A program made the translations under genes and the position numbers. The notes beneath the pieces were generated by a model. The model had not been told where the DNA came from, did no database searches, and saw only the letters and a list, made by a program, of their open reading frames with translations. Shown here in pieces: positions 7,937-56,232 of a stretch of 64,000 nt of DNA (the stretch's first letter is position 1; the number at the start of each line of letters is the position of its first letter). The stretch is from NCBI GenBank assembly GCA_965197585.1, contig OZ240215.1, forward strand, positions 1,760,001 through 1,824,000, read 5' to 3'. This stretch comes from Dehalococcoidia bacterium. Its GTDB lineage: Bacteria > Chloroflexota > Dehalococcoidia > Plut-88900.

Positions 7937-8144
7937 CACAGACCCCCAAATCCTTGACCCCCGTCACTCCCAGGCCCTCGGCCGTGTTCTACCGAGGCCC
8001 TTAACGCCGTCATTCCGGCCCTCGAGCCGGAATCCATCCCCGCCCCTTCCCGTATGGGCAGGTCTCGTGCCTGCTCCATCTTTACCTCCCACCCTCCAAG
8101 CAGATTTAACCTCGCCATTCCGAGCCCTTACCCCCTGTCATTCC

Positions 8145-9200
8145 TGTAAGTGTTAGGTAATTCGTTGACAGATTGGTATAAGAGGCCAACACCAATCTGG
8201 AGGCGAGAATGCGAGACAATAGCAAGGACCTCACCCTTGAACGTAACTACATTCAGAAGTGGCGGTTCCTCATCCATGAGTATCAACTGGTCAAGGCAGG
8301 GAAGCATCCCCGTTTCCGCTTCGCCCAGGACTTCTACTCCTTCCACGGCACTAGCCGTCAGACCTTCGCCAAGTACTACAACCGGTTCCTCCTTTCCCCC
8401 TCCGACAACGCCTTCCTCCCCCGTAAGCGGGGTCCCGGGTGGAAGTCCCGCCGCACCCTGCCCTACATTGAGCAGAAGGTCATCAACGAGCGCCTTAACG
8501 GTACCAACCGTTACGAGATCTATGCCATACTCAAACCCATCCTTAAACACAACACCCCTAAGCCCTCCACCATCTACGCCATCACCAGACGCCACGGTTT
8601 CAATAGGCTCACAAAGCCGATGCAGCAGTCGAAGCGCAAGATCATCAAGACCCGGGCAGGAGAGCTGGGCCACCTGGACAGCCACTACCTCAGCCGGGAT
8701 ACCATCGTGGGCACCAAGCACCGCTACTACCTGGTGGGCCTCATCGACGCCTACACCCGTCTGGCCTGGGCCGAAGTGGTCGGAGACATCAAGAGTCTCT
8801 CCGTTATGTTTGCTACTCTGAAGTCCATCAATTTCCTTAACGTGGAGTACGGCATCCAATTCGAGGCCATCCTCACCGACAACGGCCCCGAGATGGCCTC
8901 CCCAAGGAACACCGAGGGCCACCCCATGGAACGGATGCTCAATGAGCTGGGCATAAAGCACCGCTACACCCGACCCTATAGGCCCCAGACCAACGGGAAG
9001 ATAGAGCGGTTCTGGAGAACCTTGAACGAGGACCTGCTGGAGGGGACAACCTTCGAATCGGTCTCGGAACTGAAGGACGAGCTTCAGCAATACCTGATCT
9101 ACTACAATACTCAGAGACCCCACCAGGCAATGGACGGAAAGACCCCTTTGGAGACCCTTAAATCCACCTAATTCTGTCAACGAATTACCTGACATCCACA
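8145..9200 (+). mobile_element. Complete IS481-family insertion sequence (1056 bp)
   Basis: TGT...ACA ends; 28-bp terminal inverted repeats with 4 mismatches (8145-8172 and 9173-9200); 5-bp direct repeat ATTCC at 8140-8144 and 9201-9205. Confidence 0.92.
8209..9171 (+). CDS. IS481-family DDE transposase (rve integrase core)
   Basis: GHLD, IDAYTR, TDNGPE, RPYRPQTNGKIERFWRT, YYNTQRPHQ. Confidence 0.95.
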   Translation: MRDNSKDLTLERNYIQKWRFLIHEYQLVKAGKHPRFRFAQDFYSFHGTSRQTFAKYYNRFLLSPSDNAFLPRKRGPGWKSRRTLPYIEQKVINERLNGTNRYEIYAILKPILKHNTPKPSTIYAITRRHGFNRLTKPMQQSKRKIIKTRAGELGHLDSHYLSRDTIVGTKHRYYLVGLIDAYTRLAWAEVVGDIKSLSVMFATLKSINFLNVEYGIQFEAILTDNGPEMASPRNTEGHPMERMLNELGIKHRYTRPYRPQTNGKIERFWRTLNEDLLEGTTFESVSELKDELQQYLIYYNTQRPHQAMDGKTPLETLKST

Positions 9201-9426
9201 ATTCCGAGGCTCCGCGAGGAATCTAAGGCATATTTCTCTCCCAACTAGACAATTGATTACCCCATCCACACCAAGCAGGCGTCTTGATCCTATCCCCGTT
9301 TCCTCGACGAGAGAGGGCTAGGGTGAGGGTGATCCCATTCATGCAAACCGCCCACCTGTCTGCTTGGCAGACAGGTGGGCGGTTGAACATCTTCCTTGGT
9401 GCTAGAACTTTTCGAAGCGAGTCCCT

Positions 9427-24543: not shown

Positions 24544-24958
24544 CACCCCACCCTCCCCCGTCATTCCCGACCCCGAAGGAATCCATCCCCGGGGCGGGGC
24601 CGCTCACCCTGAGGCACTCGAAGGGTCGAGCGGGATGCGGCCCCCCATCAATCCGTCGCACCCTCCTCCACCCCAACCCCCTTCGCCCCTGTCATTCCGA
24701 TGCCCCGCGAGGAATCTGGGGAGGAGTCCTATCCCCTCTCCCTACGACGGGAGAGGGCTAGAGTGAGGCTGATCCCCTCCTTGGGGCGGAGCCGCTCACC
24801 CCTTCCTAGCCTTTCTGCCCCTCCCCCTTGATAACGATATATGAGCCATGTTGCAGAGCAACATGGCTCATATATCAATAAAACAGGGCGGGTGGGCGGG
24901 ACTCAATATATCCCTGAGGATGGTGAGGGTACCCCCTCCCATATGTGACACGAACCCC

Positions 24959-24988
24959 TTGACCCAAGGTGTACACATGTACTATATT
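24959..24988 (+). promoter_or_regulatory. Sigma70-type promoter with LexA-like box (element A)
   Basis: TTGACC (24959)-18 nt-TATATT (24983); GTAC-ACAT-GTAC at 24971-24982. Confidence 0.55.
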
Positions 24989-24994
24989 CACCCT

Positions 24995-25630
24995 CGACTA
25001 GCTCGTCACTCACCCCAAACCCAAGGAGGAACCAAAACACAGGGGGAACACCATCCCCGGCCCCCGAGGACTCAACATCTAAGCCCATCCCAAAGGGCGG
25101 CATTAGCCGCTCCTAGGCTCAAGCGAAAGCCGCCATCTCCTCATACCAAAGGCCCCGGCTCACCCTTCCCCCACCAACCATCAGGCGATGGAGGGTCCGT
25201 AGACTATAAGCGGCATGCCCTGTCCAAGGGCCCCTGCCGATACAACGCTCCCCTCATCAGGAGCGTATACCTCGCCCTCACAGGCGAATACCCTGACCCC
25301 GCCATTGGCCGGACTCAGATACAGGGCCTTTGAGCCCATAACCGACTCCCCCGCCGACGCCTTCGGAGAGGCAAGCGCACCCCTCGGCGGCTCCGAGTCA
25401 CGCTCCCATCCCTCCGCATGGTCGAGCACTTCTGGTGGTCGGGACGCCCCACGCCGAGAATCCCTCGGGTCCCCTCCCCATCCTCTCAGAAGCTAGGGGC
25501 TGCCCTGTGCAGACAGTAGATGTCCACAGGCACCGGCACAGGCCTAACCGCCTCCCTGCCCAACACTCTCGGACCTTCCGTCGCCACCCTCCCACTCAAC
25601 AAACAAACCCAGACCCCCAACCCCAACTGA
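24995..25630 (+). ncRNA. Candidate large structured non-coding RNA, copy A
   Basis: Shares ordered sequence blocks and covarying stems with 55144-55835; 16-bp helix 25184-25199/25570-25585; no ORF conserved between copies; ends approximate. Confidence 0.6.
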
Positions 25631-25844
25631 ATATCCCTCCCCCGTAGAGGCGACCGGCCAGTCGCCCTGGAGTAGGGCATTTCGCTCGCATCCTCCTGGG
25701 AAACGCACAATAATTCCCCCCAAACAATCATACAGGTGTGAACTTTTGATTGGATCAATTAAAAGTCTCACCTCTCACAGTGTATAGGCGCCACTCAACG
25801 GGCCGTCCCCCGACACCCTGCCATCCCTGCCTCCATCACTCCCC

Positions 25845-25894
25845 TTGACACCCGGCACATTCATCGCTAATATTAGCAACTGCAACTGATTGCA
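25845..25894 (+). promoter_or_regulatory. Promoter of the metal ABC operon with a metal-regulator-like box
   Basis: TTGACA (25845)-17 nt-TAATAT (25868); palindrome TGCAA-CTGA-TTGCA at 25881-25894 resembling Fur-family (Mur/Zur-type) boxes. Confidence 0.65.
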
Positions 25895-25927
25895 ACAACA
25901 CTTCATCGCATTAAGCGCTTCTCTACC

Positions 25928-54930: not shown

Positions 54931-55108
54931 AGCCGAAACGGGAGACTCGAGGTACGAGCGCTGCGTGGCACGAATGCAGGACCTGTAGAGCCAACTGCGT
55001 AGACCCGACACCTATGAGTCTAATTGGCTGACACGGCAAAGGAGGCACCCCGATCAAATCAGAGAGCCTCCCATGATCTCGTTCAGATAGAGGAGTGACA
55101 CCAACCCC

Positions 55109-55137
55109 TTGACCCGTATGAACATTAGTGCTATTAT
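55109..55137 (+). promoter_or_regulatory. Sigma70-type promoter with LexA-like box (element B)
   Basis: TTGACC (55109)-17 nt-TATTAT (55132) with extended -10 TG; GAAC-ATTA-GTGC at 55120-55131. Confidence 0.65.
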
Positions 55138-55143
55138 CCCCAC

Positions 55144-55835
55144 CGTTCGAACACCAACCTAACTATTTCAAGGAGGAACCAAAAACTAGGGAAGCCCACT
55201 AGACCCACCCGAGGACTCAACGTCCAAGCCCATCCCAACGGCCCGCGCGCAGGCCCGCGGCTCAAGCAAACGCCGCCATCTCCTCATCCCACCGGGTCCC
55301 GTGACCCCTTCCCTGACCCCCAGGCGATGGAAAGACGCCCTGGTTCGCTATCGTTCCATGTGTGCCCCCTCTAAGACGCCCTCAGCCTCTTACAGGGATT
55401 CCCTCCCCCGGGAGGGTTCCCGCTCTTTCGAGCGGGGCGGTTGGGTAAGCCCGGCGCCGAGGTCCTCTCGGCTCCTCGACCGCTTAACAAGTCGGGCGCC
55501 GGTGAACCGTGCGCTCCGGGTCACACCGGCAAACTCAAACATACTACGCCTGCATGAGCCCCGACGACCCACGCCGGACGCCGGGTCTCCTCCCCGCCCC
55601 TGCGGGGTGCAGCCGACCCTCGGGAGCAGGGCTCGGACTGTCGGCTCTGACGGTCCCTGCCTTGTCCGGCGTGTCAGGGCCTTAGGCCGCAGCAGCGGCA
55701 GGCGGGCCGGATGCCCTTGCCCCAGGGCCTCGTCGGAATACCCGCAACACAGGAACGGGGGCAGCGTCCAGCCAGCGTCTTCCATCGCCAATCCCCTCCC
55801 AACAGACAGAACCGAAACCCACAAACCCCACAATC
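55144..55835 (+). ncRNA. Candidate large structured non-coding RNA, copy B
   Basis: Homologous to copy A; helix 55323-55338/55775-55789 extended by further paired segments; many internal hairpins; ends approximate. Confidence 0.6.
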
Positions 55836-56232
55836 GAAGATGGAACACCCGCCGTGCTGAAAGTCCGCCTTTGGCGGAGAGGATCCGCCTCAGGAGGACT
55901 GAATAAAACCCCGGCGTGTCACGAATCTACCAAACGAGTACATCCCTTAGCATTCATCATCCAAAACTCTGTATTATTAGTCCCGAACCATGAATTCGAA
56001 GGGAATTTCCTTCTAGCAGCGTCATCTACAATGGTAGTCCGGCTCCGGGGTGACACTTAAGACCGCATCGTGTAAAGCTAGACAACTAAGACAAGAGTAC
56101 GGCGTATCAGCCAAATGGCTCCAACAACGAGTTATCACGCCGCCTATAATTAGGAACTCTATCAATGGAGACAGGCAGTTTTCCATTGTTGATATGATGC
56201 ACCCTATAGAGGGCAGACAGAGGGAGGAACGA

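Follow-up and report, generated by a model that had tools for sequence, protein, structure and literature searches.

Two homologous spacers, called here copy A and copy B, lie in a 64,000-nucleotide stretch of the genome of a Dehalococcoidia bacterium (contig OZ240215.1, positions 1,760,001 to 1,824,000; the window in what follows), and are probably both non-autonomous DNA transposons of the miniature inverted-repeat transposable element (MITE) or mobile insertion cassette (MIC) kind, confined to one genus and carrying a promoter-driven RNA as cargo. The family to which they belong is a MITE-like mobile cassette without a transposase gene inside. The initial annotation of the window had described a two-copy family of stand-alone RNA genes; 57 full copies and 14 partial relatives were found in the genome by iterated nhmmer searches, complete copies possess terminal inverted repeats and 5-bp duplications, and exact empty sites exist at two loci. 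Two properties are unusual for an element of the MITE kind: the cargo, a long and conserved RNA that is probably transcribed and folded, and the position at -35 hexamers, which is precise to the base and always in one orientation.

The likeness of the two spacers, from which the annotation started, is sound. The shared blocks are all there and in identical order, both by direct reading and by pairwise alignment (mean column identity 71%), and the 16-bp helix with two G-U pairs proposed for the + strand of A is exact; the nested pairings GAGGA/TCCTC and the others are also present. This agreement in blocks, order and helix is far beyond chance. The outer ten pairs of the helix, which closes the variable body of the element, are identical in A and B, whereas its inner part differs and stays complementary, so that the change is compensatory. 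The flanking genes are unrelated, as had been said: PTE and ZnuA stand beside A, an unknown protein and Amidohydro_2 beside B.

Ends, empty sites and insertion next to host promoters

The window's own genome (G000; 3.43 Mb, one contig) was compared with eight genus-mates (G001, G002 and others), and the loci of the element and of insertion sequences (IS) from G000 and its relatives were given L numbers. A DNA search with the first 256 nt of A gave 44 matches in G000, and the iterated search 71 matches to the 5' module, of which 57 are full length; the other 14 have only the first ~85 nt in common and then continue as a second, related family. Of the 57 full copies, 51 have a match to the profile of the C/A-rich tail 630-820 nt 3' of the head, the tail of A being too divergent to score. 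The repeat-depth profile showed sharp element edges, with the head in ~56 copies, body subfamilies in 5-11 and tails in 25-40. Complete copies measure 0.73-0.89 kb, the family accounts for ~1.2% of the 3.4-Mb genome, and the closest paralogue of A in G000 is 90% identical to it. On the + strand of the G000 contig, where C exceeds G by 8% (1,056,597 vs 975,422), lie 41 of the 57 full copies.

The family is genus-restricted. By DNA search all eight genus-mates contain copies, dozens in each, and none of 32 genomes of other genera gave a match; a covariance model of the head recognised G000, five of five sampled genus-mates and none of the 145 other genomes of the class (151 searched in all). A motif scan of 185,579 species genomes returned at least 80 loci in at least 8 assemblies, which among the matches listed were only long-read 'MAG: Dehalococcoidia bacterium' entries, and a scan of Joint Genome Institute metagenomes yielded five short contigs, all from one assembly, and nothing else. 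No match to the element was found in plasmids or phages, and no single-copy ancestral homologue in the genome, class or metagenome searches. The second family comprises ~14 non-coding elements of 0.9-1.0 kb in G000, with the GTGACAY/TTGAC promoter of the A/B family and a different 5' domain (CAGGCCCGAC..GTCGG.., AAGGAGTCCCATGAGTCGCAC..); a ~100-nt block is common to its bodies and the body of A (A positions 457-558).

A complete copy has the form 5'-TGATCCCGTTCAC..left inverted repeat..promoter..RNA module..right inverted repeat..GAACGAGTACA-3'. The left end, TGATCCCGTTCACATAGAGG..GTGACA, starts about a quarter of the G000 copies, and the right end, GTGTCAC..CCGAACGAGTACA, closes ~40% of them; the tips are TG..CA. 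Between the left end and the reverse complement of the right end, TGTACTCGTTCGGTAGATTAGTGACA, ~19 of 27 positions agree, which makes an imperfect inverted repeat. Terminal repeats were surveyed on 173 distinct heads, 57 from G000 and the rest from fetched loci of relatives, the right repeats being counted by a strict pattern because a looser one gave many false sites; the right repeat was present at 46 heads and the left at 29, with both at 24. The 5 nt flanking the two ends are identical at all five positions in 12 of these 24 copies and at four in another 8, while a control at offset +20 never exceeded three; as there are orthologues among the 24, the number of independent insertions is ~18.

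Two loci preserve the site before insertion. At locus B, G002 is empty and reads GAGAGCC-TCCCT-TAGCATTC, in G000 an 869-bp insert separates these flanks, and G005 also carries the element (94% identity over 3.6 kb). The second locus, L030, lies 5' of tRNA-Pro and is filled in G002 and G005 and empty in G001 and G003; the empty site of G003 reads ..GCATT-TGGACGGAAGCC..TATAAT.., with GCATT present once only and the hexamer TGGACG right after it. Copy A is absent from the syntenic spacer of G001, G002, G003 and G005, which holds other repeats and, in three of the four, a different small promoter-driven unit. This unit (G001, G002 and G005; L044, L046 and L043) has a promoter-like start, GTGACATCACC..TCGAC..TATCTT, followed by ~190 nt rich in C and A, and is also found at G000:C1:1327408-1327645.

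Target-site duplications had been named beforehand as the sign of a MITE, and as grounds for giving up the RNA-gene proposal; they are present in the family, but copy A has neither duplication nor inverted repeat and is therefore regarded as an immobilised member. No transposase gene is contained in the element: frames are broken by indels (5-7 per pair in one body subfamily) and none of the five longest open reading frames matches Pfam at E values up to 1, in agreement with the non-coding character first assigned to the spacers. An origin by retro-copying was considered and rejected, as both the left repeat and the promoter are located 5' of the predicted transcription start.

The right end is followed by the five variable bases of the duplication and then by a -35-like hexamer of the host. 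At bases +6 to +10 past the 46 right ends the counts were T 42, T 39, G 39, A 31 and C 30; TTG stands exactly at this offset in 31 of the 46 copies and in none or one at every other offset from 0 to 13, and TAnnnT follows 16-19 nt beyond TTG in 26 of the 31. The hexamer is already present in both empty sites and hence belongs to the target. Given the fixed offset, the element adjoins the upstream edge of host promoters, always in the direction of the resident promoter. The genes downstream are unrelated to one another, tRNAs among them, and each has its own promoter after the element. As selection alone would permit many other spacer positions, the placement most likely reflects a target preference; in the simplest mechanism the transposase would take a TTGAC-like sequence for something like the TGATC/TGTAC tips of the element itself. 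It is tempting to go further and to imagine homing to the edge of the sigma70 -35 box through the transcription machinery or the element's own RNA, as a bacterial counterpart of Ty3, with ~60 promoter-adjacent RNAs sharing a GTGACAY site as a co-regulated layer that would act on neighbouring host promoters or bind a common protein, but we hold this proposal to be improbable.

The promoter and the RNA cargo

The conserved 5' module of the initial annotation does recur, in the 71 matches given above, but its GTGACAC..TTGACC.. block, which had been read as RNA, is a sigma70-type promoter. The promoters of A and B each score 10 of 12 consensus matches, and the promoter scan found four sites around A as against 0.5 in shuffles. 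The genome contains 66 instances of the pattern GTGACAY-N3-9-TTGAC-N17-19-TAnnnT, and 60 of these belong to the elements. No intrinsic terminator was predicted on the + strand of A or B.

Default RNAalifold gave weak structure on 53 heads, and the head model was taken from the consensus of 144 single-sequence folds. It consists of an unpaired AAGGAGG, P1 formed by CAGGGAAG with CTTCCCTG, an interrupted P2, P3 formed by GAGGA with TCCTC, a variable hairpin P4, a short P5 and the closing helix. P1, P2 and P3 form a stem in three tiers, and the multiloop that it surrounds has unpaired sequence which hardly varies. What had been described as a first variable hairpin is better seen as the 5' strands of the long-range stems P1 and P2, whose partners are located just before GGCGATGG. 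The description of a variable body under a closing helix applies to nearly all copies: the helix is predicted in 138 of 144, has at least 9 contiguous pairs in 78 of 86 and at least 14 in 27 of 86, and is lengthened by subfamily-specific compensatory extensions. The enclosed body is hairpin-rich, subfamily-specific and 200-560 nt long. Applied to 125 copies, the head model finds 88.1% of its positions paired, compared with 34-53% when the partners are slid, and 116 cells altered on both sides compared with 34 in column shuffles (0 of 500 shuffles as high), although relatedness and gene conversion inflate such counts of compensatory change. The unpaired stretches CUCAACnUCnAAGCCCAUCCCAA, CAAGC and GCCAUCUCCUC are near-invariant in these copies, which come from nine genomes.

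The assignment of the RNA to the + strand agrees with the folding energies. Copy A has z = -5.99 on the + strand relative to dinucleotide shuffles (0 of 20 as good) and -0.44 on the - strand; six random copies gave -0.97 to -4.05 on the + strand and -2.26 to +1.61 on the other, the + strand being lower in all six and thus in seven of seven copies tested. In the outer ten pairs of the closing helix G-U outnumbers A-C by 34 to 10 although base composition favours A-C, in a count that demanded at least 8 contiguous pairs with G-U allowed and left out at most 9 copies. Metatranscriptome contigs with ~98% identity cover the body of B from 55315/55333 to 55682/55791 in four of four sponge runs examined, all from one study; their depth is 3.9-13.7 there and 2.5-6 on pieces of neighbouring genes, though contigs cannot rank expression, and the uncovered promoter, tail and spacers carry no weight. 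The sense-only folding excess, the compensatory changes and these contigs suggest an RNA that is produced and under constraint.

The cargo is outside known RNA families. As the annotation had supposed, none of 4227 Rfam models matched the window at gathering score, and the E-value mode applied to 24700-25900 gave noise, the best scores inside A being 13.6 and 17.3 bits where 34 and 100 are required. A coding reading was discarded for lack of a conserved frame and of any Pfam match among the five open reading frames; a frame conserved across homologues, which the annotation had listed as evidence against its proposal, is likewise absent, being broken by indels. A limited literature search found no published accounts of such elements.

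Mosaic copies, nested repeats and the candidate transposase

Copies of the family exchange parts. Between the G000 and G005 orthologues of B, the flanks, body and tail are 95-98% identical and the left repeat, promoter and head only 72-77%, so that the head appears to have been replaced from another copy by gene conversion. At L030, G005 has another body between unchanged head and flanks. The head replacement at B and the body swap at L030 indicate that heads, bodies and tails are shuffled by recombination, the apparent shuffling points being the conserved promoter, the closing helix and the tail. At the one locus compared, the body of B is 97.5% identical between G000 and G005 (2.5% divergence), whereas third codon positions in the genes on either side reach 88-94% (6-12% divergence). 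In copies without inverted repeats, such as A, the layout of promoter, head, helix and tail is complete.

Smaller repeats are nested in or scattered around the element. A unit resembling repetitive extragenic palindromes (REP), CCCC(G/T)TAG(A/G)GGCGACCGGC(C/G)..TCGCC, stands next to A, is scattered through spacers, and is also nested within the head hairpin P4 in many copies of genus-mates (e.g. L095, L130, L159). A hairpin module of 30-70 nt, ..GGAACATCCGCCTCnGGnGGA.., nested in B, lies between CACAA and TGAATA of many tails and in the CAAGC head loop of L007, L009, L026 and others, and is probably a separate miniature repeat. Just 5' of A there is a perfect 19-bp palindrome with a loop of 4 (window 24834-24878), followed by a AAAACAGGGCGGGTGGGCGGGACTC module that was met again 5' of seven or more other copies, and also in G002 at the site syntenic with A.

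Mobilisation in trans by an IS481-type (rve) transposase is suspected from the tips and the 5-bp duplications. The transposable elements of G000 comprise IS5, IS110, IS1182-like, IS30 and several IS481-family members, the latter occurring in eight of nine genus genomes (NCBIfam NF033577). One 1267-bp IS481 member has TGTA..TACA tips, makes 5-bp duplications and contains internal ..CGG-N8-GTTACAC repeats loosely like the ..CGG-N7-GTGACAC of the element. The termini of 14 repeated segments in G000 did not match the element ends. There are no near-identical copies within G000; the family accordingly looks old, and its partner may have been lost. IS481-type elements are often near copies only because they enter REP hairpins that flank some of them.

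Several IS deserve separate mention. The 1267-bp IS481 element (L212-L238; G000, G002, G005, G006 and G008) is a REP-targeting IS: it inserts with 5-bp duplications in the loop of the REP hairpin CCCTCTCCC..GGGAGAGGG, which was seen at 13 of 14 bounded copies and always hit in the loop; one copy differs. An IS of ~1.09 kb with an rve-type transposase of 329 aa occupies window positions 8125-9225 and 20 other places in G000, most of the 21 copies being 96-99% identical and three ~89%; the copy examined lies within a GTCATTCCGAGGCTCCGCGAGGAATC-type REP hairpin. The element copy with its head at 660641 is split between left repeat and -35 by a single-copy 1.3-kb IS encoding a 423-aa rve protein (G000:C1:659330-660640). 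The groES-groEL promoter region (G000:C1:3404940-3405100) carries a solo left inverted repeat with GTGACAT and TTG, a stretch of 37 nt that does not differ from complete copies; behind it come a -10 of its own and an inverted repeat like CIRCE (controlling inverted repeat of chaperone expression). The solo repeat has the look of a scar, or of the source from which the left end of the element arose.

Table 1. Features of copies A and B (window coordinates) and positions of second-family elements (G000:C1)
Feature	Positions	Strand	Basis or remarks
Copy A, whole	24945-25633	+	both inverted repeats lost, cargo kept
A, GTGACAC upstream motif	24945-24951	+	read from sequence
A, sigma70-type promoter	-35 TTGACC 24959-24964, 18-nt spacer, -10 TATATT 24983-24988	+	sequence, promoter scan
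A, predicted 5' leader	24995-25037	+	short imperfect palindrome, variable among copies; start inferred from -10 position
A, invariant Shine-Dalgarno-like CAAGGAGGAACCAAAA	25022-25037	+	sequence, copy comparison
A, conserved head domain	25042-25172	+	consensus of 144 single-sequence minimum-free-energy folds; pair counts on 125 copies
A, P1	25042-25048 with 25166-25172	+	predicted fold
A, P3 (GAGGA with TCCTC)	25066-25070 with 25138-25142	+	predicted fold
A, head between helices	25063-25093, then ~25095-25113	+	invariant unpaired stretch, then variable-sequence hairpin, then GGCTCAAGC..GCCATCTCCTC
A, closing helix	25184-25199 with 25570-25585	+	encloses ~370-nt hairpin-rich variable body
A, C/A-rich, G-poor tail	25586-25633	+	terminates in CAACTGAATA; no right inverted repeat after it
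3' neighbour of A, REP-like hairpin	25634-25666		in place of right inverted repeat
Copy B, complete copy	55074-55942	+
B, left target-site duplication TCCCA	55069-55073	+	empty site in G002
B, left terminal inverted repeat TGATCTCGTTCAGATAGAGGAGTGACAC	55074-55101	+
B, promoter	-35 TTGACC 55109-55114, 17-nt spacer, -10 TATTAT to 55137	+	TG before -10
B, Shine-Dalgarno-like motif and head domain (P1-P5)	55169-55322	+
B, closing helix	55323-55338 with 55775-55789	+	one bulged A; surrounds 436-nt body
B, C/A-rich tail	55790-55833	+
B, nested small hairpin module	55834-55899	+	then TGAATAAAA
B, right inverted repeat GTGTCAC..GAGTACA	55916-55942	+
B, right target-site duplication TCCCT	55943-55947	+	directly then resident promoter region of downstream Amidohydro_2 gene
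Second-family loci	G000:C1 62860, 505610(-), 1445638, 1577663, 2280200, 3022084, 3035253(-), 3062928(-), 3386770(-), others		outside window

Competing explanations and related systems

According to the explanation we favour, an RNA of ~600-750 nt would be made from the + strand and folded as modelled, and probably ended by Rho on the rut-like, G-poor C/A tail, in which case the element would not run into the adjoining host promoter. Selection on the RNA module together with frequent gene conversion among copies would keep the module intact, and could explain why A retains promoter, head, closing helix and tail without its inverted repeats; transposition would be provided in trans by an IS481-type (rve) transposase. 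As a best guess, the RNA may be a protein-binding or regulatory one, serving the element or co-opted by the host, although we regard this as somewhat less likely than not.

A number of observations weigh against this explanation. Most copies are without recognisable repeats. No autonomous partner with matching ends was found in G000, the whole genomes of the relatives not having been scanned for repeat pairs, and good matches to the left repeat in G000 are limited to these elements, one IS-disrupted copy and the groES promoter. The IS481-type elements examined insert in REP hairpin loops, not at -35 boxes, and their ends resemble those of the element only in the TGTAC tip and the ..CGG-N7-8-GTnACA pattern. 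As for the RNA, the compensatory changes fall mainly in P1 and P4, where they perhaps stem from only one or two events, and P3 and the outer closing helix hardly vary. The mutual information of 153 heads is dominated by non-complementary subfamily linkage, for which reason it was not used as evidence, and covariation is thin. With RNAalifold the four body subfamilies have like scores and compensatory counts on both strands and so tell nothing of the strand, and the head helices contain 114 G-U and 134 A-C combinations, with no G-U excess. The evidence of expression consists of contigs from one study, without strand or ends, in which DNA carry-over is possible. Both Rho termination and the role of the RNA we infer only.

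These observations give room to other explanations. The copies could be a family of stand-alone cellular RNA genes, whose 600-750-nt products act in trans for the host, which spread by duplication and gene conversion, and in which the ends are a side issue of few copies. The RNA module does outlast the transposition ends, the promoter pattern being found at 60 of 71 matches and the closing helix in 138 of 144 copies, as against, by the strict pattern, the left repeat in 15 and the right in 24 of the 57 G000 copies; the near-invariance of unpaired head segments in 125 copies of nine genomes, the sense-strand-specific folding excess, and a body more conserved than synonymous sites at one orthologous locus are also what such genes would show. 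We nevertheless judge this explanation unlikely, since presence and absence are exact at the inverted-repeat bounds with 5-bp duplications at two loci, the insertion geometry to -35 boxes is fixed, heads and bodies are exchanged as in a mosaic, only one genus among the 151 class genomes searched has the element, and the searches made found no single-copy ancestral homologue. A shade less likely again is a purely selfish repeat without RNA function, in which the promoter is a relic of the promoter and leader of a lost transposase gene, the hairpins are nested palindromic repeats and conservation results from concerted evolution. Small repeats are indeed inserted in the element (the hairpin module in tails and head loop, the REP-like unit in P4), head replacement by gene conversion was observed, covariation events are few, RNAalifold finds the bodies equally good on either strand, and the AAGGAGG right behind the promoter looks like a relic ribosome-binding site. 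Such a repeat, however, would hardly have a folding excess on the sense strand only in seven of seven copies tested, a closing helix enriched in G-U over A-C, invariant loops beside variable stems, or the full promoter-head-helix-tail layout in copies unable to move, such as A, and no coding trace is left. That the element is a cis-acting leader or riboswitch of the downstream gene is very improbable: it does stand upstream of the next gene in the same direction with no intrinsic terminator between, but the downstream genes are unrelated and include tRNAs, each retains its own promoter after the element, and the same genes lack the element in sister genomes.

Among known systems the transposon explanation has its closest parallels in MITEs and mobile insertion cassettes, non-autonomous bacterial transposons such as MIC231 of Bacillus cereus. 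Terminal inverted repeats, a duplication of fixed length, the lack of a transposase gene, many dispersed copies, presence/absence polymorphism and a passenger between the ends are common to both. The passenger here differs in that it is neither a protein gene nor filler but a non-coding RNA of 600-750 nt, driven by a promoter and apparently structured. It is retained even though one end or both are gone from most copies, and insertion keeps a constant 5 bp from -35 hexamers, with a single orientation. The IS481 family, marked by TG..CA tips and duplications of 4-15 bp, shares the tips and the 5-bp duplications, its members in the genus having TGTA..TACA ends and also duplicating 5 bp, but none with matching inverted repeats was found and the members examined enter REP hairpin loops, not promoter edges. 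The Correia elements of Neisseria are likewise small non-autonomous repeats with promoter elements, gene-adjacent and forming RNA hairpins, but they measure ~100-160 bp, duplicate TA and lack a long conserved RNA domain. The present element is five times their size, with an internal promoter dedicated to it. OLE, GOLLD, ROOL and HEARO, the omega RNA of IscB, are of the same several-hundred-nucleotide size class and also have a conserved core with variable peripheral stems, and HEARO is in addition multi-copy and linked to mobile DNA. The element differs from these large Rfam RNAs in that it has no sequence or structure match to them, no associated protein gene, a far higher copy number and a single-genus range. 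Ty3, a eukaryotic retroelement that is targeted through transcription factors, and other eukaryotic elements integrate at set positions of Pol III promoters; the likeness lies in the exact spacing from a core promoter element and in the sparing of the host gene, whereas the present case concerns a bacterial DNA element and may be one of plain sequence preference.

What was described as a two-copy structured RNA may be the tip of a repeat family, and a genome-wide copy count and a search for empty sites belong first in such cases. Bacterial non-autonomous transposons are usually short filler between two ends, whereas the family described here bears a whole conserved transcription unit for a long folded RNA, in an uncultured Dehalococcoidia lineage whose DNA appears in sponge metatranscriptomes. 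The element sits with single-base precision against host promoters and leaves them intact. If this targeting is active, it would represent a new choice of safe site by bacterial mobile DNA and would offer a tool at hand for insertion near promoters; should the RNA prove functional, the family would be a new class of large RNA that is spread by transposition.

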